A stretch of DNA of 44,690 nucleotides. Origin: an archaeon (GTDB taxonomy: Archaea; AGJL01; Methanococci; Methanococcales; Methanocaldococcaceae). The position numbers and the translations under genes are program-made. Below the pieces are notes generated by a model. The model did not search any database. It saw only the letters and a list, made by a program, of their open reading frames with translations, and had not been told where the DNA came from. Shown here one piece after another: positions 4,993 to 19,517 of this stretch. The stretch lies in assembly GCA_024278985.1 (NCBI GenBank), contig JAJRSC010000026.1, forward strand, positions 1 through 44,690. Reading direction: 5' to 3'. Every line of letters begins with the position of its first letter. The first letter of the stretch is position 1.

Positions 4993-5106
4993 ATCTTATA
5001 ATTTTTATATATGAATTTACTATTTTTAAAAATATTATATTGAGTGAAAGATAATTATTAAGTAAGGTTTTACAATTAAATAAATTTAAATTAATTAGTG
5101 ATAAAT

Positions 5107-8100
5107 ATGCATGTTGCATGCTCTGAGGAGATGAAAAAATATTTTGAGAATTTAGTTAAAGAAGTAAAAAGAATTTACAAAATTGCAGAAGAATGTAGAA
5201 AAAAAGGATTAGATGTTTCTGATAATGTTGAGATTCCATTAGCTTTGGATATGGCTGATAGAGTTGAGGGTATTGTTGGGCCAAAAGGAGTTGCCAAAAG
5301 AATAAGGGAATTAGTTGAAGAGTATGGAAAAGAAGAGGCAGCTTTAAAAATAGCTGAGGAAATAGTTCAGGGAAAATTTGGAGATATGCCAAGAGAAAAA
5401 AGAGCTGAACAAGCTGTTAGAACAGCTTTAGCAGTATTAACAGAGGGAATTGTTGCTGCTCCATTAGAAGGAATTGCTGATGTTAAAATTAAAAAAAATC
5501 CTGATGGTAGTGAGCATCTTTCTATATACTATGCTGGACCTATAAGAAGTGCTGGAGGTACTGCTCAGGCATTATCTGTTTTAGTTGGAGATTTTGTTAG
5601 GAAGGCAATGGGATTAGATAGATATAAACCTACTGAGGATGAAATAGAGAGATATGTTGAGGAAGTTGAGTTGTATCAATCTGAGGTTGGAAGTTTTCAA
5701 TATTCCCCTACAGCAGATGAAATTAGAAAAGCAGTAAAAAATATTCCTATAGAGATTACTGGGGAAGCTACTGATGATGTTGAAGTTTCAGGACATAGAG
5801 ATTTACCAAGAGTTGAAACTAATCAAATAAGAGGAGGGGCATTACTGGTTATTGTAGAGGGAGTTCTTCTTAAAGCTCCTAAGATATTAAAGAGAGTTGA
5901 AAAATTAAAATTAGATGGTTGGGATTGGCTTAAAGATTTTGTAAATAAAGGAAGTGAAAAAGAAGAAGAGGAAGAAGACACTGAAGAAACAGAAGAAATA
6001 AATAAATACTGGAGAGATTTTAAGATTGAAGAAAATAAAAAATTTATTAAGGAAGTTATAGCAGGAAGGCCTGTTTTTGCTCATCCTTCAAAAATTGGAG
6101 GATTTAGATTAAGATATGGAAGAAGTAGAAATACAGGTTTTGCTACTCAGGGAATACATCCTGCATTAATGTATTTAGTAGATGAATTTATAGCAATTGG
6201 TACTCAACTAAAAACTGAAAGGCCTGGGAAGGGAACAGTTGCTGCTCCAGTTGATTCCATAGAGGGGCCAATAGTCAGATTAAAAAATGGAGATGTAATT
6301 AGAGTTGATACTGTTGAAAAAGCATTAGAAATTAAAGATAGAGTAGATAAGATATTATTTTTAGGAGATATATTAGTAAATTATGGAGATTTTTTAGAAA
6401 ATAATCATCCATTAATTCCAAGTTGCTGGTGTGAAGAGTGGTATGAGGAAGAACTAAAAAGTAAAAATATAGAATATAGCAAAGATTTTATAAAAAATCC
6501 TAAACCTGATGAAGCTGTTGAGTTTGCTATAAGAACAAAAACTCCTTTACATCCAAGATATACATATAGATGGCATGATGTTAGTAAAGAAGATATTTTA
6601 ATTTTAAGAGAACACTTATTAAATGGATATGAAAAAGATAACTTATGGATTATAGATTATGATAAAAAAGTAAAAAATATATTGGAATATATAGGTTGTT
6701 GTCACATAGTTAGAGACAATAAAATAATTTTAGATGAATATTATCCACTATTATACTCTCTTGGCTATGATGTTAAAAATAAGGAGGATTTAGTTAAAAA
6801 TATTAAAGAATGTTATGAAACTGCAAAGAATTCCATGCATTTTATTAATCTCTTAGCACCTTTTGAAGTTAGAAGGAACACATATGTATATGTTGGAGCA
6901 AGAATGGGAAGACCTGAAAAAGCAGCTCCAAGAAAAATGAAACCCCCAGTTAATGGTTTATTTCCAATAGGAAATGCTGGGGGAAATGTTAGATTAATAA
7001 ATAAGGCTGTTGATGAAAATAAAGTAGATACTATTGAAGTTAGTTATGGTATTTGTAAATGTGGTAAAATTTCATTATATAGAACTTGCCCATTTTGTGG
7101 AGAAAAAGTAGAACTTAATAAATTTGGAAAAATAAAAGCTCCTCTTAAAGAGTATTGGTTTAAAGCCCTTGAAAGATTAAAAATTAAAGGTGGGGATGTA
7201 AAGTGTATTAAGGGAATGACATCAAAATATAAAATTGTTGAACCTTTAGAAAAAGCAATATTAAGAGCAAAACATGATGTTTATGTCTTTAAAGATGGTA
7301 CTGCAAGATTTGACTGTACTGATATGCCTTTAACTCATTTTAAGCCAAAGGAAATTAATGTAAGTGTTGAAAAACTTAGAGAATTAGGTTATACAAAGGA
7401 TATATATGGTAATGAATTAGTTGATGAAAATCAGATTGTTGAACTAAAACCTCAGGATATTATTCTTCCAGAAGCAGGTGCTGAATACTTTATTAGAGTT
7501 GCCAATTTTATAGATGATTTATTAGAAAGATTCTATAAGGTAGATAGATTTTACAATGTTAAGAAAAAAGAGGATTTAATTGGGCACATAGTTATAGGTA
7601 TGGCTCCACACACTTCTGCAGGAATGGTTGGGAGAATAATAGGATATGTTAAGGCAAATGTTGGATATGCACATCCATATTTCCATGCTGCAAAGAGAAG
7701 AAACTGTTTTCCAGGAGAGACAAAGATATTAGTTAATATAAATGGAAAAAAAGAAAAAATAACATTTAAAGAATTGTATGAGTTATTTGAAAATGAAAAA
7801 TATGAAAAATTTGCATATATTAAAAATAAGCCTAAAGTTGATATTAAAATATACTCCTTCAATCCAGAAAATAAAAAGGTAGTTTTAACTGATATAGAAG
7901 AAGTTATAAAAGTAAGAGCTCCAAATCATTTAATAAAAATAGTTCTTGAGGATGGTAGAAGTTTTACAACAACACCAGACCATCCAGTTATAATATACAA
8001 TAAAAAACTAATTAAAAAAATGGCTATGGAAGTTAGTGATGAGGATTATATTATAGTTTTAGATAATGATAAATTTAATATTTTAAGAGTAAGAGAAATT

Positions 8101-8946
8101 AAATATATTAAATCTAAAGATAGATATGTGTATTCAGTAAATGCAAAAAAGTATCATAATGTAATAATTAATGATAATATATTAGTACATAATTGTGATG
8201 GAGATGAAGATGCAATATTTTTACTTTTAGATGCATTTTTAAACTTTTCAAAACTCTTTTTACCTGATAAAAGAGGAGGACAAATGGATGCTCCTCTTGT
8301 TTTAACTACCATATTAGACCCAAAAGAGGTAGATGGAGAAGTTCATAATATGGATGTTATGTGGAGGTATCCATTAGAATTTTATGAAAAAACCTTAGAT
8401 ATGGTTTCTCCTAAAGAAGTTAAGGAATTTATGGAAACTGTTGAGGATAGATTAAGCAAAGAAGAGCAGTATGAAAATCTTGGTTATACTCATGAAACTA
8501 CATCTATAGATTTAGGCCCTAAATTATGTTCATATAAAACATTGGGAACTATGTTAGAAAAAACAGAGGCACAACTTAAAGTTGCCAAAAAAATAAGGGC
8601 AACTGATGAGAAAGATGTAGCTGAAAAAGTTATACAATCTCACTTTATACCTGATTTAATTGGAAATTTAAGAGCTTTCTCAAGGCAGGGAGTTAGATGT
8701 AAGTGTGGAGCTAAATTTAGAAGAGTTCCATTAAAAGGAAAATGTCCAAAATGTGGGTCATCATTAATATTAACTGTATCTAAGGGAGCAGTTGAAAAAT
8801 ATATGGACGTAGCTGAAAAAATGGCAGAGCAGTATAAAGTAAATAACTATATAAAACAGAGGTTAAAGTTAATAAAAGAAGGAATTAACTCAATATTTGA
8901 AAATGAGAAAAATAAACAAACTAAAATAAGCGATTTCTTTGGATAA
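5107..8946 (+). CDS. polC: DNA polymerase D large subunit (DP2), intein-containing precursor
   Basis: [34 protein letters not shown], catalytic CDGDED, DAPLVLT, C-terminal Zn finger and PIP-box QTKISDFF. Alternative GTG start at 5098. Confidence 0.97.
7705..8193 (+). mobile_element. Mini-intein (163 aa, no homing endonuclease) in DP2
   Basis: In-frame insert between AKRRN and CDGDED. Block A CFPGET, block B TTTPDH (TxxH), terminal ILVHN followed by Cys+1. Too short for a LAGLIDADG domain. Confidence 0.93.
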
Positions 8947-9293: not shown

Positions 9294-10604
9294 ATGAAAA
9301 AGATATTAATTGTATTAGGGTTAATATTGATAAGTCCAATAGCATTTGGAGAACTTATGGGAGATGTTAATGGAGATGGCTCAATTAATATTGCAGATGT
9401 AGTTTATCTTTTCATACATAGAGATGTTGGATTAGACAAAGGAGATTTAAATTGTGATAATTCCGTTGATATTGCAGATGTTGTATATTTATTCAATAAC
9501 TATCAAAAATGGAGAGAACCCGTAGTGTTTGCTAAAGATTTTGAGATTCAATATTATGATAAAAATGGTATTCCTATATCTTATTTAGATGCATTAAAAA
9601 ATGGTTGGGAATACAAAATATTAACAACAAAATATGGAGATGACGTTTATAATAAGTACTGTATTGTAAAAGAAGGTGAAAATCCTCCAAGTAACTTACC
9701 TTCAGATGTAAAAGTTATATACACTCCTAAAGTTGCTGCATTAAATTCCTTCCATGTAGCAATGCTAGTAGCATTAAATGATAGTAATGTACTAAACTCA
9801 ATAAAAGGAGTGTCTACTAGTACATATGAAAGAATAAAAGATGGTATATTTCCAGAATTAAAACCCTATGTTGATAATGGAAATATTATTTCAATTGGTT
9901 CTTGGAGTACAATAAATAAAGAGGCTTTATTAAATATAAGTCCTGATATAGTGTTTATTCCATGGTCACATGGTTACTTAGTTACAGATATTGAAACTGT
10001 AAAAGATTTAGGCTTAAATTATCTTGTAACTGTTGAGTCAAATGAACCAGATTTCCTTGGAAAAGCAGAGTGGGAAAAAGTATTTGCTTCATTATATAAC
10101 TTAGATAGCAAGGGAAATGACTATTTACAAAAAGTTTGGATGAAAAGAAATGAACTTATAAGAAAAACAAGAACCGCTACAGATAGACCAAAAGTAGGAA
10201 TGCTTTATTGGAGTAAAGATTTAGGTCCTTGGATATACTGTGCTCAAAACTATTATGTAAAATGGATTTTAGATGTAAAAGGAGATTATTGCTTCCTTGA
10301 CTTCCCTGGAACAAGTTATGAGAATATTGATCCAGAAACTGCTTTAGAACATTTGCAAAATTGTGATGTTTTAATATATATGAATTGGAATTCTATATAT
10401 GAGCCAATATATACACTTGAAGATTTAGAAAAATATAAACCAGAGTTAATTCCAGTAATAGAACATGCAAAAAGAGTTTATGTAACTAAACCAAACTACT
10501 CATATGATGGAAATGTCCATATGGACTTATTAATGGAGGACTTTGCAAGAATGGTCCATCCAGAATGCTTTGATGGAGGAGATAGTGAATTACATTATTT
10601 ATAG
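9294..10604 (+). CDS. ABC transporter substrate-binding protein (iron-chelate/cobalamin class) with N-terminal dockerin module
   Basis: Signal peptide MKKILIVLGLILISPIAFG, two Ca-loop repeats (GDVNGDGSINIADVVYLF, GDLNCDNSVDIADVVYLF), then a type III SBP body (EALLNISPDIVF, EPDFLGKAEW, DFARMVHPE). Followed by two FecCD permeases. Confidence 0.85.
   Translation: MKKILIVLGLILISPIAFGELMGDVNGDGSINIADVVYLFIHRDVGLDKGDLNCDNSVDIADVVYLFNNYQKWREPVVFAKDFEIQYYDKNGIPISYLDALKNGWEYKILTTKYGDDVYNKYCIVKEGENPPSNLPSDVKVIYTPKVAALNSFHVAMLVALNDSNVLNSIKGVSTSTYERIKDGIFPELKPYVDNGNIISIGSWSTINKEALLNISPDIVFIPWSHGYLVTDIETVKDLGLNYLVTVESNEPDFLGKAEWEKVFASLYNLDSKGNDYLQKVWMKRNELIRKTRTATDRPKVGMLYWSKDLGPWIYCAQNYYVKWILDVKGDYCFLDFPGTSYENIDPETALEHLQNCDVLIYMNWNSIYEPIYTLEDLEKYKPELIPVIEHAKRVYVTKPNYSYDGNVHMDLLMEDFARMVHPECFDGGDSELHYL
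9360..9494 (+). other. Dockerin (type I-like) duplicated F-hand module
   Basis: Two repeats matching GDxNxDxxxxxxD followed by an identical helix IADVVYLF, with a short linker IHRDVGLDK. Confidence 0.82.
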
Positions 10605-10619
10605 TGAATTACATTATTT
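10582..10619 (+). repeat. Perfect 19-bp tandem duplication at the SBP 3' end
   Basis: ATAGTGAATTACATTATTT occurs at 10582-10600 and 10601-10619. Confidence 0.95.
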
Positions 10620-10659
10620 CATAAAATTAAAGTAATTTAAGTAAAATAACTTTAATATA

Positions 10660-10678
10660 TTTTTAATTTTTTATTTTT
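10660..10678 (+). terminator. Possible oligo-T terminator between SBP and permeases
   Basis: Successive T runs downstream of the SBP stop. Archaeal intrinsic terminators are U-rich, but the AT background is high. Confidence 0.3.
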
Positions 10679-10722
10679 ACAAAAATTAAATTTAGGAATT
10701 ATATTATGAATTGGTGATATTA

Positions 10723-11766
10723 TTGAAATTCAAAATATTCATAATTTCTATAATTCTTTTTTTTATTTTAGTCTTATTTTCAATTTTAAGTATAACAACC
10801 GGAACTATTAAAATTGACACAGAAAAAATTTTTAATTATTTTTTATCAGGAACTACTGGAAATTCTTTATATGATAATATAATTGGAAAATGTAGGATTC
10901 CAAGAACTGTTGGGGCAATATTTGCAGGAATGGGTTTAGCAGTTGCAGGATTATTAATGCAAAGTTTTTTTAGAAATCCATTAGCAGATCCATATTTAAT
11001 AGGTGTTTCAAGTGGAGCATCTCTTGGTGTGGCCTTGTATGTATTTACATCTTTATTATTTAAGTTTGGATTTCCAAAATCTATATGGGGATTTATATTA
11101 TCTGCCTATATTGGGGCATTATTTACAATGTTAATTGTTATTTCTCTTGCAAAAAAAGTTAAACAAATTACTACCTTGTTAATAGTTGGAATAATGATTT
11201 CATATATTTCTTCAGGATTAATAACCATTGTTATATCCTTTAGTGATTTTATAGGTGTTGATAACAATGTTTTAGCAAGCTTTATAATGTGGGGCTTTGG
11301 AACTTTAAATAATATAACTCTAAAACAATCAACAATTATGGGAGTTATTGTTTTATTATGTTGTTTTATTACTTTTTTCCTCTCAAAATATCTTGATACA
11401 TATTTACTTGGAGAAAATTATGCAAGAAGTTTAGGAGTTAATATAAAAAATTTAAGAGTGACAATTATCTTATTGTCTTGTATGATCACTGCAACTATTG
11501 TTGCATTTACAGGACCTATTGGTTTTGTAGGATTAGTATGCCCTATAGTAACAAGATTATTATGCGGAACTTCTAAACATCTTTATGTAATTCCTAATGC
11601 TATGCTAATTGGGAGTATATTTTTAGTTATGGCTGATATTCTTGTAAGACCTGGAGTTATTATTCCTTCAACTAATCCAGAATTACCTTTAATGTGCCCT
11701 TTAGCAGTTATAGGTGCACCAATTGCCATATATATTTACTTAAAAAAGAGAGATATTGGGATATAA
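10723..11766 (+). CDS. FecCD/BtuC-family ABC permease
   Basis: [32 protein letters not shown] and GPIGFVGL, with many TM helices. GGTGA SD then TTG at 10723 (alternative 10711). Confidence 0.92.
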
Positions 11767-12786
11767 ATGAAGAAAATGATTATAATTATATTTTTAATGT
11801 TGTTAGTATTTATATTATCTATTCTCAGTATATTTTTAAGTGGTACTGCAAAATCTATAACTGTTGAAGATGTTAAAAACTTTATATTGTATGGTACAAC
11901 AGGAGATAAATTTAAAGATACTATTTTATGGGATGTTAGAATACCTCCCTTAATAACAGCAATAATTGTTGGTGGAGTGTTATCTGTTGCAGGTTTAATA
12001 TTACAAACATTATTTAGAAATATATTAGCATCTCCATATACAACAGGAATATCAAGTGGAGCTATACTTGGAGTAGCTATATCTATATTTTTAGGATTAT
12101 CATTACCTTCCTTTTTTGATATTAATAAAGATATTATTGGAGGATGGATAGGTTCAGGATTAGCATTAATTGTTTTGTTATATCTTGCTATAAAATTAAA
12201 AGATACTACTGGAGTTTTAGTTTGTACATTGTTATTTTCTTATTTATACTATGGAGTTGAGAGTTATCTTATAAGTTTTGCAGATAATACACAAATTCAA
12301 GAATTTTGGATGTTTTTGCAGAGTAGTTTTTTTGCTCCAAAATGGAAAGATTTAAAGATAATGGCAATATCATCAATAATCTTTCTACTTTCTACATATC
12401 TACTATCAAAACAATTAAATGCATTACTATTTGTAGAAAATTATGCAAAAAGTTTTGGAATTAATATAAAACACCTTATAGTAATTATTTTATTTCTTTC
12501 AGGTTTTATTGTTGGAGTTATTATTCCTCTTGTTGGAATAATCCCATTCATTGGATTGGCATCTCCATATATTGCAAGAATAATAATGAATACTTCAGAC
12601 CATAGATGGACAATTCCAGCATCAATTCTAATAGGAATACTTATTTCACTAATATGTTATTTAATATCCATAAAACTATTTGCTCCAAAAGTTATTCCTG
12701 TAAAATCAATTTTAGATTTATTTGGAGGAATGTTGGTTATTTATTTAATTTACAGAGCAGAAAAAAGAAATATTATAAATTTATAG
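11767..12786 (+). CDS. FecCD/BtuC-family ABC permease (second subunit)
   Basis: RIPP, LFRNILASPYTTGISSGA, ENYAKSFG and GIIPFIGL. Starts directly after the previous stop. Confidence 0.9.
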   Translation: MKKMIIIIFLMLLVFILSILSIFLSGTAKSITVEDVKNFILYGTTGDKFKDTILWDVRIPPLITAIIVGGVLSVAGLILQTLFRNILASPYTTGISSGAILGVAISIFLGLSLPSFFDINKDIIGGWIGSGLALIVLLYLAIKLKDTTGVLVCTLLFSYLYYGVESYLISFADNTQIQEFWMFLQSSFFAPKWKDLKIMAISSIIFLLSTYLLSKQLNALLFVENYAKSFGINIKHLIVIILFLSGFIVGVIIPLVGIIPFIGLASPYIARIIMNTSDHRWTIPASILIGILISLICYLISIKLFAPKVIPVKSILDLFGGMLVIYLIYRAEKRNIINL

Positions 12787-13553: not shown

Positions 13554-14462
13554 ATAAATAATTAAAAATATGAAAGATTTTCACATTTAACTAAAACCCA
13601 TCCATGTTTCAATGAGAAAGTTCATGATAAATATGGTAGAGTCCATCTTCCTGTTGCTCCAAGGTGTAATATTGCATGTAAGTTTTGTGTTAGAAGTTTA
13701 GGAAGTGATGAAAAAAGGCCAGGAGTCTCATTTAAAGTTTTAAAACCTGAAGATGTTGAAGAATATTTAAAAAGAATATTAAAAGAGATTCCTAATTTAA
13801 AAGTTGTTGGTATTGCAGGACCAGGAGATAGTTTATTTAATAAAGAAACTTTTGAGACTTTAAAAATAATTGATGAAAAATTTCCTGACTTAATAAAGTG
13901 TATATCAACTAATGGGTTATTACTTCCAAAATATTATAAAGATTTGGCTAATTTAAATGTTAGAACTATAACAGTAACAGTTAATGCAATAAAACCAGAA
14001 ATATTAAAGGATATAGTTGAATGGGTATATTATAATAAAAAAGTATATAGAGGTGAAGAAGGGGCTAAGATATTAATAGATAACCAATTAGAGGGAATAA
14101 AAAAGGCCTATGATGAAGGATTGATAATTAAGGTTAATAGTGTTTTAATTCCTGATATTAATATGAAGCATATAGTTGAGATTGCAAAAGAACTTAAAGA
14201 TTATATATATATACATAATATTATCCCATTAATCCCTCTTTATAAAATGAAACATCTTAGACCTCCAACCTGTGAAGAGATTAAAAAGGTTAGAGAAGAA
14301 GCAGAAAAATATGTTCCACAATTTAGAGCATGTGGTCAATGTAGAGCAGATGCTGTTGGATTAATTAAAGAGAAAAAGATTTTAGAGGAGTTTTTTAGAG
14401 AAAAAAATAAACCATTGAATAAAAATATTGATTTATTTGATTTAAAACATTTCTCCCATTAA
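13554..14462 (+). pseudogene. nifB: NifB-type radical SAM protein (stand-alone, no NifX domain) with a disrupted 5' end
   Basis: The frame is open from 13566: HPCFNEK, RVHLPVAPRCNIACKFC, RPG, GIAGPGD, STNG, CGQCRADAVG. There is no in-frame ATG/GTG/TTG before 13944. SD GGTGA at 13544 is followed by ATA AAT AAT TAA. Confidence 0.8.
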
Positions 14463-14476
14463 GAGAGATGATAAAA

Positions 14477-15454
14477 ATGATAACTGTTGGAATTGACCAT
14501 GGAACTTCTGGAATAACAACATGTATAAAAAATAATAAAAAAAAAATTATTTTTAAATTAAAGAGGTCAGAACTTATAAACAAAAGTTATTTAGAAGAAT
14601 TAAAAAAGCATGTTAATATTGATGATATTGACTTATTAGTTTTAACATACTCTATGGGAGATGGAATTGATAGAATTTTACCAATAGAAAAAGTAAAAAA
14701 TAGAGGAGTTAAGAGTATAGAAGGAGCTGGGAAAAAGATAGGTGGTGGAACTAAGGTTTATGATGAAATTAAAGAGAGTGGAATACCAACAGTTGTAATT
14801 CCTGGATTACATAGAAATATAAAATGTTTAGATGAAAGATTTAGAGCTTTATTTTCTCATATAGCCTCACCAGAAAAAATTTCCATTGCATACTATGCCC
14901 ATAAGGTTTTTAGATTAGATAATTTTATTCTTTCAGATATTTCTTCTAATACTGTAACATTATTAATAAAAAATAAAATATTTTTTGGAGGATTTGATGC
15001 TTGTATTGGAGCTATTGGAATGTTACATGGTCCAATTGACTTAGAATTTATTAGATTAATAGATGAGAAAAAAATAACTGCAAATGATGCCTTTTCTCAG
15101 GCTGGGGCTGTTAAGATAGCTAAGTTATATAAAGGTGTGGAAAATACAAAAGAAGAAATTTTAAAAAATTATCATAAAAATAAAAATTGTAAGTTGGCAG
15201 TTGATAGCTTAGTTTTAAGTGTATCTATGGAAATTAATTCACTTCTACCTCTATCAAATAAAAAGATTGTTGTTTTATCTGGTTCAGTTGGAACATATAG
15301 AGAAAATATAGATATTCCTAAAATGATAAAGAAGTATGTTAATGCAAAAATATTTACTCTCTCAGGAGAAAGTGGAGCAATTGGTGGAGCAATAATTGGA
15401 GAAGATATTTTAAAAGGAAAAAGAGATATTTTAGGAATTCCTGTGGAATTATGA
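14477..15454 (+). CDS. Methanogenesis marker protein 12 (UPF0285, ASKHA fold)
   Basis: VGIDHGTSG, TYSMGDG, SHIASPEK, DISSNTVT and HGPIDLE. Confidence 0.8.
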   Translation: MITVGIDHGTSGITTCIKNNKKKIIFKLKRSELINKSYLEELKKHVNIDDIDLLVLTYSMGDGIDRILPIEKVKNRGVKSIEGAGKKIGGGTKVYDEIKESGIPTVVIPGLHRNIKCLDERFRALFSHIASPEKISIAYYAHKVFRLDNFILSDISSNTVTLLIKNKIFFGGFDACIGAIGMLHGPIDLEFIRLIDEKKITANDAFSQAGAVKIAKLYKGVENTKEEILKNYHKNKNCKLAVDSLVLSVSMEINSLLPLSNKKIVVLSGSVGTYRENIDIPKMIKKYVNAKIFTLSGESGAIGGAIIGEDILKGKRDILGIPVEL

Positions 15455-16164
15455 TAGGTTTAGGAATTGGAGATAATAAAGAAGAAATTTTAAAGGCATA
15501 TAATAAGTTGATTAAAGAGGGTTATAAAGTTAAACTTATTGATAACTATAAAGAGTTAGTAGATAAAGTATTAAATAAGGAACTTTCTGGAGCAGTGAGG
15601 GGTTCTTTATCATCAAAAACCATACTTTACCTTAGAGAAAAAATAGGAAAATTTTACAGAGCTTCAATTTTAAAAAATCCATTTTACAAGGATGAAGTTT
15701 TTTTATTGGTTCCTGTTGGTATTGATGAACTACCAGAAAATCCTGAAGAAAGAATTAAAGAAAAAATTAAAATTATTGAGCTATCAAGGAATTTTTTAGA
15801 ATCTTTAAATAAAAAACCTAAAATTGCTCTACTTTCTGGGGGAAGATTGGAAGATTTAGGAAGAGGAAAAAAAATTGATGAGACAATATTAGAAGCTGAA
15901 AAAATTAAAGAATCTTTAAAAAATTATGATATTATACATAAAGGTATAGTAATAGAAGAATATTTAAAAGATAAATGTAATATTATTATAGCCATAGATG
16001 GAATTACTGGAAATTTAATTTTTAGATGCTTAGGATTGGTTTGTAAGATAGAAGGATATGGGGCTATTCTTCTAAACAAAAATATCAAATTTATAGATAC
16101 CAGTAGAAATGCAGATTGGAGAAGGTATTATAATGCAGTAAAGCTTTTAGGTGAGAAAGAGTGA
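15451..16164 (+). CDS. mtxX: MtxX / methanogenesis marker protein 4
   Basis: AVRGSLS, PVGIDE, LSGGRLEDLGR, DGITGNLIFR and DTSR. ATGA overlap. Confidence 0.8.
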   Translation: MIGLGIGDNKEEILKAYNKLIKEGYKVKLIDNYKELVDKVLNKELSGAVRGSLSSKTILYLREKIGKFYRASILKNPFYKDEVFLLVPVGIDELPENPEERIKEKIKIIELSRNFLESLNKKPKIALLSGGRLEDLGRGKKIDETILEAEKIKESLKNYDIIHKGIVIEEYLKDKCNIIIAIDGITGNLIFRCLGLVCKIEGYGAILLNKNIKFIDTSRNADWRRYYNAVKLLGEKE

Positions 16165-18227: not shown

Positions 18228-19517
18228 TCAACTATTTAGAACTTTTGTTTTCTTATATTCAATAATTTTTATACCACAATATAATCCAATAAATATAGAT
18301 ATCAATATTATCCAAAATTCTAATGATAAATTAAGAATTTCAAAATGTTTAAAATACTCCTCTAACCCAGATGTTACGATTAATACATGTGTTGCTTCTA
18401 AAGCATAGATTCCAAATATTCCAATCTCTAAAACTTCCATTGCTTCTCCTAAAGCAACCTGATATTTTGTATTTTGAGCTAATTGCTTAACAATTTCCCT
18501 TTCTAAATCTTCTGATATTGTTGTTAATAATCTTGTTAAACTTGTTGCCAACTCACTATTACTTTTTAAAAGATTATCAATTTCAGTTAATCTATATCTT
18601 ATCCTACTTATCTTTTTATCTGTATCTATTAACTCTAAAATTGTTTTTGTAAAATCATCAAAATCTGGAGGATAATTTTCATGAATTATATTAATTATTT
18701 CCTCCAAATAACCCAATACAATCTCAATAACTGAAAGTTCTTTATCTATACTACTTAACTCAGCTCTAATTTTATCAATCTCTTCAATATCCATTTTTTT
18801 TAATTTGTCACTAATATACTCTAATTTTGAGGATATATAAACTAATCTGAAAAATAAATCTCTTGAAACACCTGTTAAGCTTCTAATAAACGAATAGTAT
18901 CCTAAAAAATTTTCAAATTTTTCTGGTTTCTTTGTTGATATATATATCCCAAAATCTCCAAATATTATATCTCCATCACTAAGTTTTAAAATTTTCTTTA
19001 TACCTCCAATTATTTGAGTTAATTTGTGAAGTTCTTCATTATTAAAATTTTCTTCTGATATAACTCCAATATGTTTATATATTTTAAATCTTCCATATAA
19101 TATTTCTAATAAGTACCTCTGTGAGGATGAAATTAAAGGATACATTATATGGGATGATTTTAATATTAAATTAGGAATAATACATGAAAGTTTTTTTAAG
19201 CTACTACTTTCCAGCTCAACTGCATATATAACCCTTCCAAGATAATCAACAGAAATAAAAAAGCTAAGGTCTTCATCTAAAACATTTGAAGTAAATTGGA
19301 CATATGTCTCAGGTTCAAACTCAATAATATTTACAGCAGTTTTATATTCAAACACTTCAAATATACCTTTATCTCTTATATCTCCTTTACCTACAGAAAA
19401 ATACCTCTTTCTTTTACTTTGATATTCTTTAAGTGTAATTCTATCTATAAATTCATTCATGTAGTTTTTACCAAAAGGAATCCATTCAGTTAAAATAATT
19501 TTTGGATTCTTTAACAT
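18228..19517 (-). CDS. Conserved hypothetical protein: soluble N-domain, long helical stalk, two C-terminal hydrophobic segments
   Basis: 429-aa ORF with host-like codon usage and an SD-like GGAGAG. Function not recognised. Confidence 0.7.
   Translation of the reverse strand: MLKNPKIILTEWIPFGKNYMNEFIDRITLKEYQSKRKRYFSVGKGDIRDKGIFEVFEYKTAVNIIEFEPETYVQFTSNVLDEDLSFFISVDYLGRVIYAVELESSSLKKLSCIIPNLILKSSHIMYPLISSSQRYLLEILYGRFKIYKHIGVISEENFNNEELHKLTQIIGGIKKILKLSDGDIIFGDFGIYISTKKPEKFENFLGYYSFIRSLTGVSRDLFFRLVYISSKLEYISDKLKKMDIEEIDKIRAELSSIDKELSVIEIVLGYLEEIINIIHENYPPDFDDFTKTILELIDTDKKISRIRYRLTEIDNLLKSNSELATSLTRLLTTISEDLEREIVKQLAQNTKYQVALGEAMEVLEIGIFGIYALEATHVLIVTSGLEEYFKHFEILNLSLEFWIILISIFIGLYCGIKIIEYKKTKVLNS

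Follow-up and report, generated by a model that had tools for sequence, protein, structure and literature searches.

The stretch of DNA analysed here, hereafter the window, comprises 44,690 nucleotides from an archaeon of the family Methanocaldococcaceae, order Methanococcales (NCBI GenBank assembly GCA_024278985.1, contig JAJRSC010000026.1, positions 1 to 44,690 of the forward strand); it lies on contig C28 of an assembly of 1.1 Mb in 30 contigs that is 86% complete. It encodes a substrate-binding protein of the ATP-binding cassette (ABC) importer type that is tagged at its N-terminus with a dockerin module and is followed by the genes of two FecCD-family permeases (Table 1). The initial annotation, made from the sequence alone, had described a binding protein that starts with a signal peptide and a dockerin of two repeats and has two FecCD permeases behind it, and the open reading frames (ORFs), Pfam matches and the further analyses below confirm this description. 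The binding-protein ORF is open from 9285 and its ATG at 9294 is preceded by a purine-rich stretch; all three genes are co-directional, and the start of permease 2 abuts the stop of permease 1. Pfam matches residues 147-365 of the protein to Peripla_BP_2 (E 2.7e-11, 43.8 bits against a cut-off of 27.5), which makes it a member of that family. Its closest homologues are 70-73% identical and carry the source name Methanocaldococcus; the four closest have a precomputed PF00404 match together with PF01497, so that the domain architecture is already visible in the precomputed Pfam annotation of homologues.

The only hydrophobic segment of the window protein, residues ~4-18, is that of the signal peptide. 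It contains no cysteine, and the cysteines of the protein lie at residues 54, 123, 316, 333, 357 and 425, so that no cysteine precedes residue 54 and the lipobox pattern [LVI][ASTVI][GAS]C is absent from the end of the signal peptide. Inspection of the sequence thus bears out the initial description of a protein with neither a lipobox cysteine nor a second hydrophobic segment. By the same inspection the signal peptide is probably cleaved after Ala-Phe-Gly, and the alignment of homologues retains small residues at positions -3 and -1.

Two repeats make up the dockerin: residues 23-42 (9360-9419) and residues 50-69 (9441-9500). In both, a 12-residue loop (residues 24-35 and 51-62) has Asp or Asn at all five of positions 1, 3, 5, 9 and 12 and runs into the helix IADVVYLF, which is present twice (residues 33-40 and 60-67), as first noted. 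At the DNA level the repeats have 42 of 60 bases in common. A six-frame search with Dockerin_1 found both of them (9360-9404 and 9438-9497), with a summed score of 28 bits that lies above the cut-off, and the orthologue in genome G001, 74% identical to the window protein, scores 26.7 bits. When a profile built from nine dockerin modules was compared with the PDB, all six matches at E<=0.01 were dockerins (2ccl_B, 1.5e-5; 1ohz_B, 5.6e-5), and in the HMMER alignments both window-type repeats align with these two chains, a xylanase dockerin. Among the 3382 ORFs of the genome, a double Ca-loop motif with a spacing of 27 residues is present in two, each encoding a binding protein, and 20 shuffles produced none; the pair of motifs is therefore beyond chance. 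Together with the profile matches, it shows the N-terminal dockerin of the window protein to be real. EF-hand profiles of Pfam also give weak matches to the protein.

No other part of these proteins is as well conserved as the dockerin. Over 136 pairs, drawn from different paralogues and genera, its mean pairwise identity is 76.5% and that of the binding domain 41.9%, and this far stronger conservation fits a shared partner surface. Type I dockerins have a dual binding mode, with which the near-identical helices of the two repeats would be compatible. Only two proteins of the window's genome carry a dockerin, the window protein and a paralogue encoded on contig C18, and both are binding proteins.

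Table 1. Genes and protein segments of the dockerin cassette in the window (C28), and cohesin proteins encoded on contig C18.
Feature	Position	Strand	Description
Dockerin-tagged substrate-binding protein gene	9294..10604	+	436 aa + stop; ORF list; Pfam Peripla_BP_2, Dockerin_1
Signal peptide, Sec-type, residues 1-19	9294..9350	+	KK, Pro-containing hydrophobic core, A-F-G before Glu20; putative cleavage
Dockerin module, residues 23-70	9360..9503	+	Two Ca-loop + helix repeats
Binding domain, residues 80-436	9531..10601	+	Peripla_BP_2 family: siderophore, haem, B12 receptors
FecCD-family permease 1	10711..11766	+	351 aa; Pfam FecCD E 2.1e-73
FecCD-family permease 2	11767..12786	+	339 aa; Pfam FecCD E 1.4e-61
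Scaffoldin, 1003 aa	C5/C18 join, directly downstream of the C18 paralogue		Three cohesins alternating with CARDB domains
677-aa cohesin protein	C18		Three cohesin modules + PKD domain
278-aa cohesin protein	C18		One cohesin module
Small 178-aa cohesin protein	C18:11176-11709		One cohesin module

Cohesins on a second contig

The initial annotation placed the cohesin partner of this dockerin elsewhere in the genome, on a membrane or S-layer protein, and saw none in the window. Profile searches likewise find no cohesin within the window, and contig C18 supplies what was predicted, so that the objection that the genome might encode no cohesin-like protein falls away. C18 encodes the second dockerin-tagged paralogue (461 amino acids (aa); Peripla_BP_2, 3.7e-20), and an iterated module profile found eight cohesin modules on four secreted C18 proteins, with no other ORF below E 0.1 among the 3382. 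Both of the predicted kinds of carrier are encoded. The 677-, 278- and 178-aa proteins end in a hydrophobic C-terminal helix followed by Lys/Arg, and in the smallest just ~15-20 residues separate the cohesin module from the membrane helix. The scaffoldin, whose full length of 1003 aa was recovered through a 26-nucleotide exact overlap of contigs C5 and C18, has a C-terminus that matches S_layer_C (41.9 bits against a cut-off of 23.9); Pfam finds CARDB and S_layer_C on it and no carbohydrate-binding module (CBM).

A profile of 34 cohesin modules from five genomes had cohesin or scaffoldin chains as all of its best 22 PDB matches, from 3l8q (1.3e-12) down to E 1.4e-3 and including the Archaeoglobus fulgidus cohesin 2xdh (9e-7). 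Narrower comparisons gave less: profiles of the small-cohesin family (A2, A3) had no significant PDB match, the broader module profile (A4) alone giving one, and a phmmer search of the PDB with a scaffoldin orthologue returned CARDB-like chains only. Pfam Cohesin is matched by six of 20 members of the small-cohesin family (best 1.4e-10), by the scaffoldin at 24-24.4 bits around the cut-off of 24.1, and by scaffoldin orthologues at 30.2 and 52 bits. Judged from these profiles, the C18 modules are genuine cohesins. As to the nine-stranded beta-sandwich (jelly-roll) fold of cohesins, the stored Atlas model of an orthologue 65% identical to the 178-aa protein resembles cohesin clusters at a template modelling (TM) score of 0.69-0.71.

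The C-terminus of the small cohesin protein varies among genera. In alignment A3 it consists of a membrane helix with a basic tail in two genera, one of them the window's; all other genera have an amphipathic tail closing with Phe-Gly(-Gly), which would be a different mode of membrane hold. In G017, 13 large ORFs carry at their C-terminus the S_layer_C-like end of the scaffoldin (~140 residues), which suggests a general surface-attachment module of Methanococcales.

Distribution across Methanococcales and exchange of dockerin and lipobox

A comparative set of 40 Methanococcales genomes, which are related by descent, allowed the co-occurrence proposed as a check in the initial annotation to be followed across the order; a search widened to the phylum covered these same 40. 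Dockerin modules occur in 27 of the 40 genomes and cohesin modules in 27; 26 genomes have both, 12 have neither, one (G017) has a dockerin only and one (G030) a cohesin only. The split runs through the window's own genus, in which eight genomes have both, eight have neither and there is no exception. In G030, with a completeness of 64%, the contig begins within the binding-protein gene, just before a cohesin gene; the cohesin-only state of this genome is an assembly cut. Nearly all dockerin matches sit in frames whose length, 425-475 aa, is that of a binding protein. Three longer proteins (P0035, P0038 and P0039; 528-627 aa) start with the same dockerin, their binding-protein-like domain is shortened and a long additional region is present at the C-terminus; they are a putative further cargo variant of the dockerin system.

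The genes also lie together. Counted by hand from match coordinates in 24 genomes with both modules, a divergent cohesin gene of ~190 aa lies less than 500 bp from the gene of the dockerin-tagged binding protein in 18 and within 4 kb in four more. This anchored cohesin is the most constant neighbour of the binding-protein gene. G006 encodes two dockerin-tagged binding proteins and a sole cohesin, the small anchored one, adjoining one of the two, and by its retention there this cohesin becomes the leading candidate for the essential socket. In G001 the whole system forms a single locus, in which CobN, a ferredoxin, the ABC ATPase, three anchored cohesin proteins, dockerin-tagged binding protein 1 and the scaffoldin are joined by dockerin-tagged binding protein 2 (the orthologue of the window protein), two permeases, a radical-SAM enzyme and a TIM-barrel protein. 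A locus of this type is broken up in the window's genome, with the window cassette on C28, the ATPase at C1:1291-2418 and the rest on C18.

Genomes of the same genus that have neither dockerin nor cohesin keep the transporter locus and both binding-protein paralogues. In seven genomes without either module, all 12 exported orthologues carry a lipobox cysteine at the end of the signal peptide; a low-complexity linker of 25-40 residues takes the place of the dockerin, and the alignment resumes at the same conserved motif. The idea that the dockerin replaces the usual anchor of the binding protein, put forward in the initial annotation, thus finds support in the lipobox and linker of orthologues in cohesin-free sister genomes. 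In a maximum-likelihood tree of the binding domain (40 rows, quick search, Shimodaira-Hasegawa-like approximate likelihood ratio test (SH-aLRT) support only, with long branches for G017_a and G021_a, and with neither the root nor the direction of the swap established), the lipobox forms make up two clades of six, each with SH-aLRT 99, nested among the dockerin forms in two paralogue groups. As there is one lipobox clade per paralogue group, the type of anchor changed in both paralogues in the cohesin-free genomes, once in each. The window type makes up a third, long-stemmed clade, found with the dockerin only.

Two other explanations of the distribution were tried and rejected. One was that the co-occurrence reflects island loss only; the binding-protein genes persist, with a lipobox, in cohesin-free genomes. 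The other was that the dockerin makes up for the lack of a lipoprotein pathway. At least 11 further lipobox candidates are encoded in the window's genome, and several of these ORFs resemble binding proteins, so lipidation is available and the dockerin is a specific alternative to it.

The same alignments hold two further observations. A third class of Peripla_BP_2 paralogues, 324-330 aa long and without a signal peptide (L018, L021, L022, L024 and L027, from G005, G008, G011, G012 and G016), served as the outgroup in the binding-domain tree and looks like a cytoplasmic 'binding protein'. In the paralogue group of the C18 protein (L007:2666-4048 (-); L013, L014, L016, L019, L023, L025), dockerin and lipobox forms alike have the conserved C-terminal tail Asn-Thr-Ala-x-Pro-Tyr/Phe-x-Ala-x.

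The transporter, its ligand and the rest of the window

The initial annotation left the ligand as a metal chelate, and the gene context tentatively narrows this to a corrinoid. The best NCBIfam match of permease 1 is BtuC (6.5e-54). The ATPase at C1:1291-2418, 375 aa long including a C-terminal extension of ~130 aa, matches best, over its full length and including the extension, a corrinoid ABC ATPase model (2.9e-70). Its gene lies divergently next to one for a ChlI-like AAA+ chelatase subunit (G000:C1:176-2418, locus L029), a neighbour that would be a further link of the transporter to tetrapyrrole metal insertion. In G005 the gene behind that of the lipobox binding protein is NifH-like; it matches a nitrogenase reductase-like family above the cut-off and the CfbC model below it. 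The C18 locus contains CbiZ (6e-53) and CobN, and the TIM-barrel protein has as its best match CbiR, a cobamide-remodelling enzyme (1.4e-14). From this context our reasoned guess, at about even odds, is that the ligand is most likely a corrinoid, either a cobamide or cobinamide.

The scores leave this assignment weak. All of the transporter and CbiR matches lie below curated cut-offs: permease 1 reaches 183 bits against 334, every NCBIfam match of permease 2 is below its cut-off, and the ATPase match, likewise below, stands at 237 bits against 537 for the G001 orthologue. The binding domain is nearer to siderophore-binding proteins than to BtuF, its family profile giving in the PDB the uncharacterised 4ovk (3e-9), siderophore- and Fe-citrate-binding proteins (5e-6 to 5e-5) and, no better than E~0.5, BtuF.

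BtuFCD, the haloarchaeal corrinoid ABC transporter and CbiZ-dependent cobinamide salvage are systems of corrinoid import and salvage. The system described here resembles them in its FecCD/BtuC-type permeases and in the CbiZ, CbiR-like protein and CobN of its locus, and differs from BtuFCD in having two different permease genes instead of one and a binding domain that is not detectably BtuF-like. With BtuC and ATPase matches below equivalog scores and such a binding protein, it falls outside the BtuFCD-type corrinoid importers as formally defined, and may nevertheless work like one.

Directly 3' of the permeases there is no ABC ATPase gene; the next gene, on the minus strand, encodes a YdjM-family membrane protein by Pfam. 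The wider neighbourhood is housekeeping, with the DNA polymerase II large subunit (DP2) upstream and prenyltransferase and homocysteine biosynthesis genes downstream. Rfam at gathering thresholds gave two tRNAs only and no riboswitch upstream of the binding-protein gene. Promoter-like sites number 49 against 39 expected and terminator-like sites one against 1.1 expected, under bacterial models that are ill-suited to an archaeon. In the DP2 gene (5098-8946, +) the catalytic-domain match falls into two stretches separated by an insert of ~160 residues with intein-like ends, which is probably a mini-intein. ORFs of 172-429 aa at 13944-14462, 14468-15454, 15451-16164 and 18228-19517 have no Pfam match at E<=1e-5.

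A proposed cohesin-dockerin tether for a transport receptor

We propose that the dockerin plugs into the surface cohesins encoded on C18 and would thereby hold the binding protein between membrane and S-layer, near its permeases; we put the probability of this reading at roughly 0.68. The binding protein would be exported by the Sec machinery and its signal peptide removed. Its dockerin would then fold in a Ca-loaded form and dock on a cohesin module of one of the C18-encoded surface proteins, most likely the 178-aa protein with its C-terminal membrane helix, with extra sites possibly offered by the three cohesins of the S-layer-linked scaffoldin and by the two further anchored cohesin proteins. 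The ABC ATPase would be supplied from C1. Since the spacer between module and helix in the small cohesin is short, a receptor docked there would stay close to the permease, much as one held by a lipid anchor and linker does. In this way the dockerin would do the job that a lipid anchor and flexible linker do on the orthologues of sister species. A more elaborate scheme is a two-tier, Ca-dependent corrinoid relay, in which the binding proteins would dock on the S-layer scaffoldin at the outer face of the cell, capture scarce ligand there and exchange to the short membrane cohesins next to the permease, the symmetric, dual-mode dockerin permitting the hand-over; the cohesin-dockerin tether, and not lipidation, would then be ancestral for these receptors in Methanococcales. 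We regard this scheme as speculative and rather improbable.

Several observations weigh against the proposed tether. The window protein itself scores 21.4 bits with Dockerin_1, just below the cut-off of 22.9, and Pfam aligns repeat 1 alone; the 178-aa protein, at 18.8 bits, also stays below the cut-off of Pfam Cohesin. The genome has eight cohesin modules and two dockerin proteins, and the modules are 17-27% identical to one another, bar one pair at 51%. Given this excess and divergence, most of the modules may bind something else, and for some of them other partners or roles are probable. Being on another contig, the cohesin genes do not adjoin the window cassette. G017, which is 99% complete, encodes a dockerin-tagged binding protein, yet profile A2, Pfam Cohesin, the scaffoldin protein and profile A4 found no cohesin in it. 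Because the genomes are kin and the genes mostly neighbours, the raw co-occurrence overstates the independence of the cases, and a single island, gained or lost as a unit, could account for part of it. The lipobox swap speaks against this as the full explanation.

It is conceivable that the dockerin does bind cohesins but that the purpose is display. Binding proteins held on the scaffoldin would then form an outer array for scavenging or adhesion, collecting, for example, corrinoids from neighbouring cells, and coupling to transport would be secondary. Such an array would suit a scaffoldin whose three cohesins alternate with adhesion-type CARDB domains ahead of an S-layer-like end, and whose second module shows the highest conservation of any cohesin between families (68% to G026); the authors of work on anaerobic methanotrophic (ANME) archaea also weigh cell-cell roles (Chadwick et al., 2022). 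We nevertheless consider display unlikely, given that the most constant neighbour of the binding-protein gene is the small membrane-anchored cohesin, that G006 keeps this cohesin alone, that the lipobox of sister genomes puts the protein at the membrane and that ABC permease genes follow the binding-protein gene.

More distant from our proposal are explanations that dispense with the cohesins altogether. If the signal peptide stayed uncleaved and were itself the anchor, the dockerin-like segment could be a Ca-binding, stabilising or spacer module that binds no cohesin. G017, which retains the module without a detectable cohesin, and the weak EF-hand matches would agree with this, cleavage being a prediction made by inspection. 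However, the hydrophobic core is short (~15 residues), has a Pro inside and is followed by small residues at -3/-1, and the co-occurrence and adjacency of the cohesins, the conservation of the dockerin and the lipobox exchange in both paralogues where cohesins are absent would all be left unexplained, which makes an uncleaved anchor very unlikely. Slightly less credible still is a dockerin that binds some other partner, such as an S-layer protein or a permease, while the cohesin-like proteins merely share the island and serve another surface function. The very divergent eight modules facing two dockerin proteins would be accounted for in this way, and physical linkage alone can yield co-occurrence; against this, the lipobox swap coincides with the absence of cohesins although the rest of the transporter locus is kept, and dockerins are not known to have partners other than cohesins. 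A tether made of dockerin and surface cohesin remains the reading that we prefer.

A non-cellulosomal cohesin and dockerin have reportedly been described from Archaeoglobus fulgidus. Like that cohesin (2xdh), those of the present system are archaeal and have no link to cellulose; here, cargo, anchors and a natural control can be identified. With the xylanase dockerin and CipA cohesin of Clostridium thermocellum (1ohz, 2ccl) the system shares two Ca-loop and helix repeats and a multi-cohesin scaffoldin. It differs from cellulosomal pairs in that the cargo consists of two transport receptors and not of glycoside hydrolases, and in that the dockerin is N-terminal and short (~48 residues); in the profile alignment the Ser-Thr recognition pair of 1ohz_B corresponds to Ile-Ala in the window dockerin. 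As it has no dockerin-bearing glycoside hydrolases and no CBM on the scaffoldin, it is not a cellulosome. The lipobox orthologues belong to the same binding-protein family and have the same operon partners and an anchor in the same N-terminal position. Their hold, of the kind seen in archaeal lipoproteins in general (AliA/AliB; PMC12462473), is a covalent lipid with a flexible linker, whereas here it would be a non-covalent plug.

The nearest precedent comes from ANME archaea. As set out in the relevant passages of Chadwick et al., 2022 (PMC9012536), dockerins are fused there to binding proteins of ABC importers, of the NikA/OppA and TroA types, and the genomes also encode multi-cohesin scaffoldin-like proteins, for which a function is proposed and experiments are called for; Timmers et al., 2017, in the part concerned, found cohesin and dockerin domains abundant in ANME archaea and termed their function unknown. 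The combination of a dockerin on an ABC binding protein with multi-cohesin scaffoldin-like proteins in the same genome is thus common to both cases. Compared with the ANME systems as presented in those passages (PMC9012536), ours is in Methanococcales and of the Peripla_BP_2 family, has a dedicated locus, a divergent small anchored cohesin and a scaffoldin with an S-layer end, and goes further in showing a natural exchange of dockerin for lipobox. A literature search of titles and abstract openings, with supplementary tables outside its scope, returned no paper on dockerin-tagged binding proteins of Methanococcales. What is new here is the evidence of a conserved locus, of order-wide co-occurrence and of the dockerin/lipobox exchange.

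The role of non-cellulosomal cohesins and dockerins in archaea has, as far as the passages cited above go, long been unsettled, and the system described here is small and defined, with two proteins as cargo and one anchored cohesin whose gene is constantly adjacent. Cultivable methanogens have it, the source names of the homologues including Methanocaldococcus, Methanothermococcus, Methanotorris and Methanococcus. In sister species, which have no cohesins, a lipid anchor holds the same receptors, and this natural control makes the tethering hypothesis directly testable. Furthermore, the system suggests a heat-stable plug-and-socket pair that may serve for surface display in archaea.

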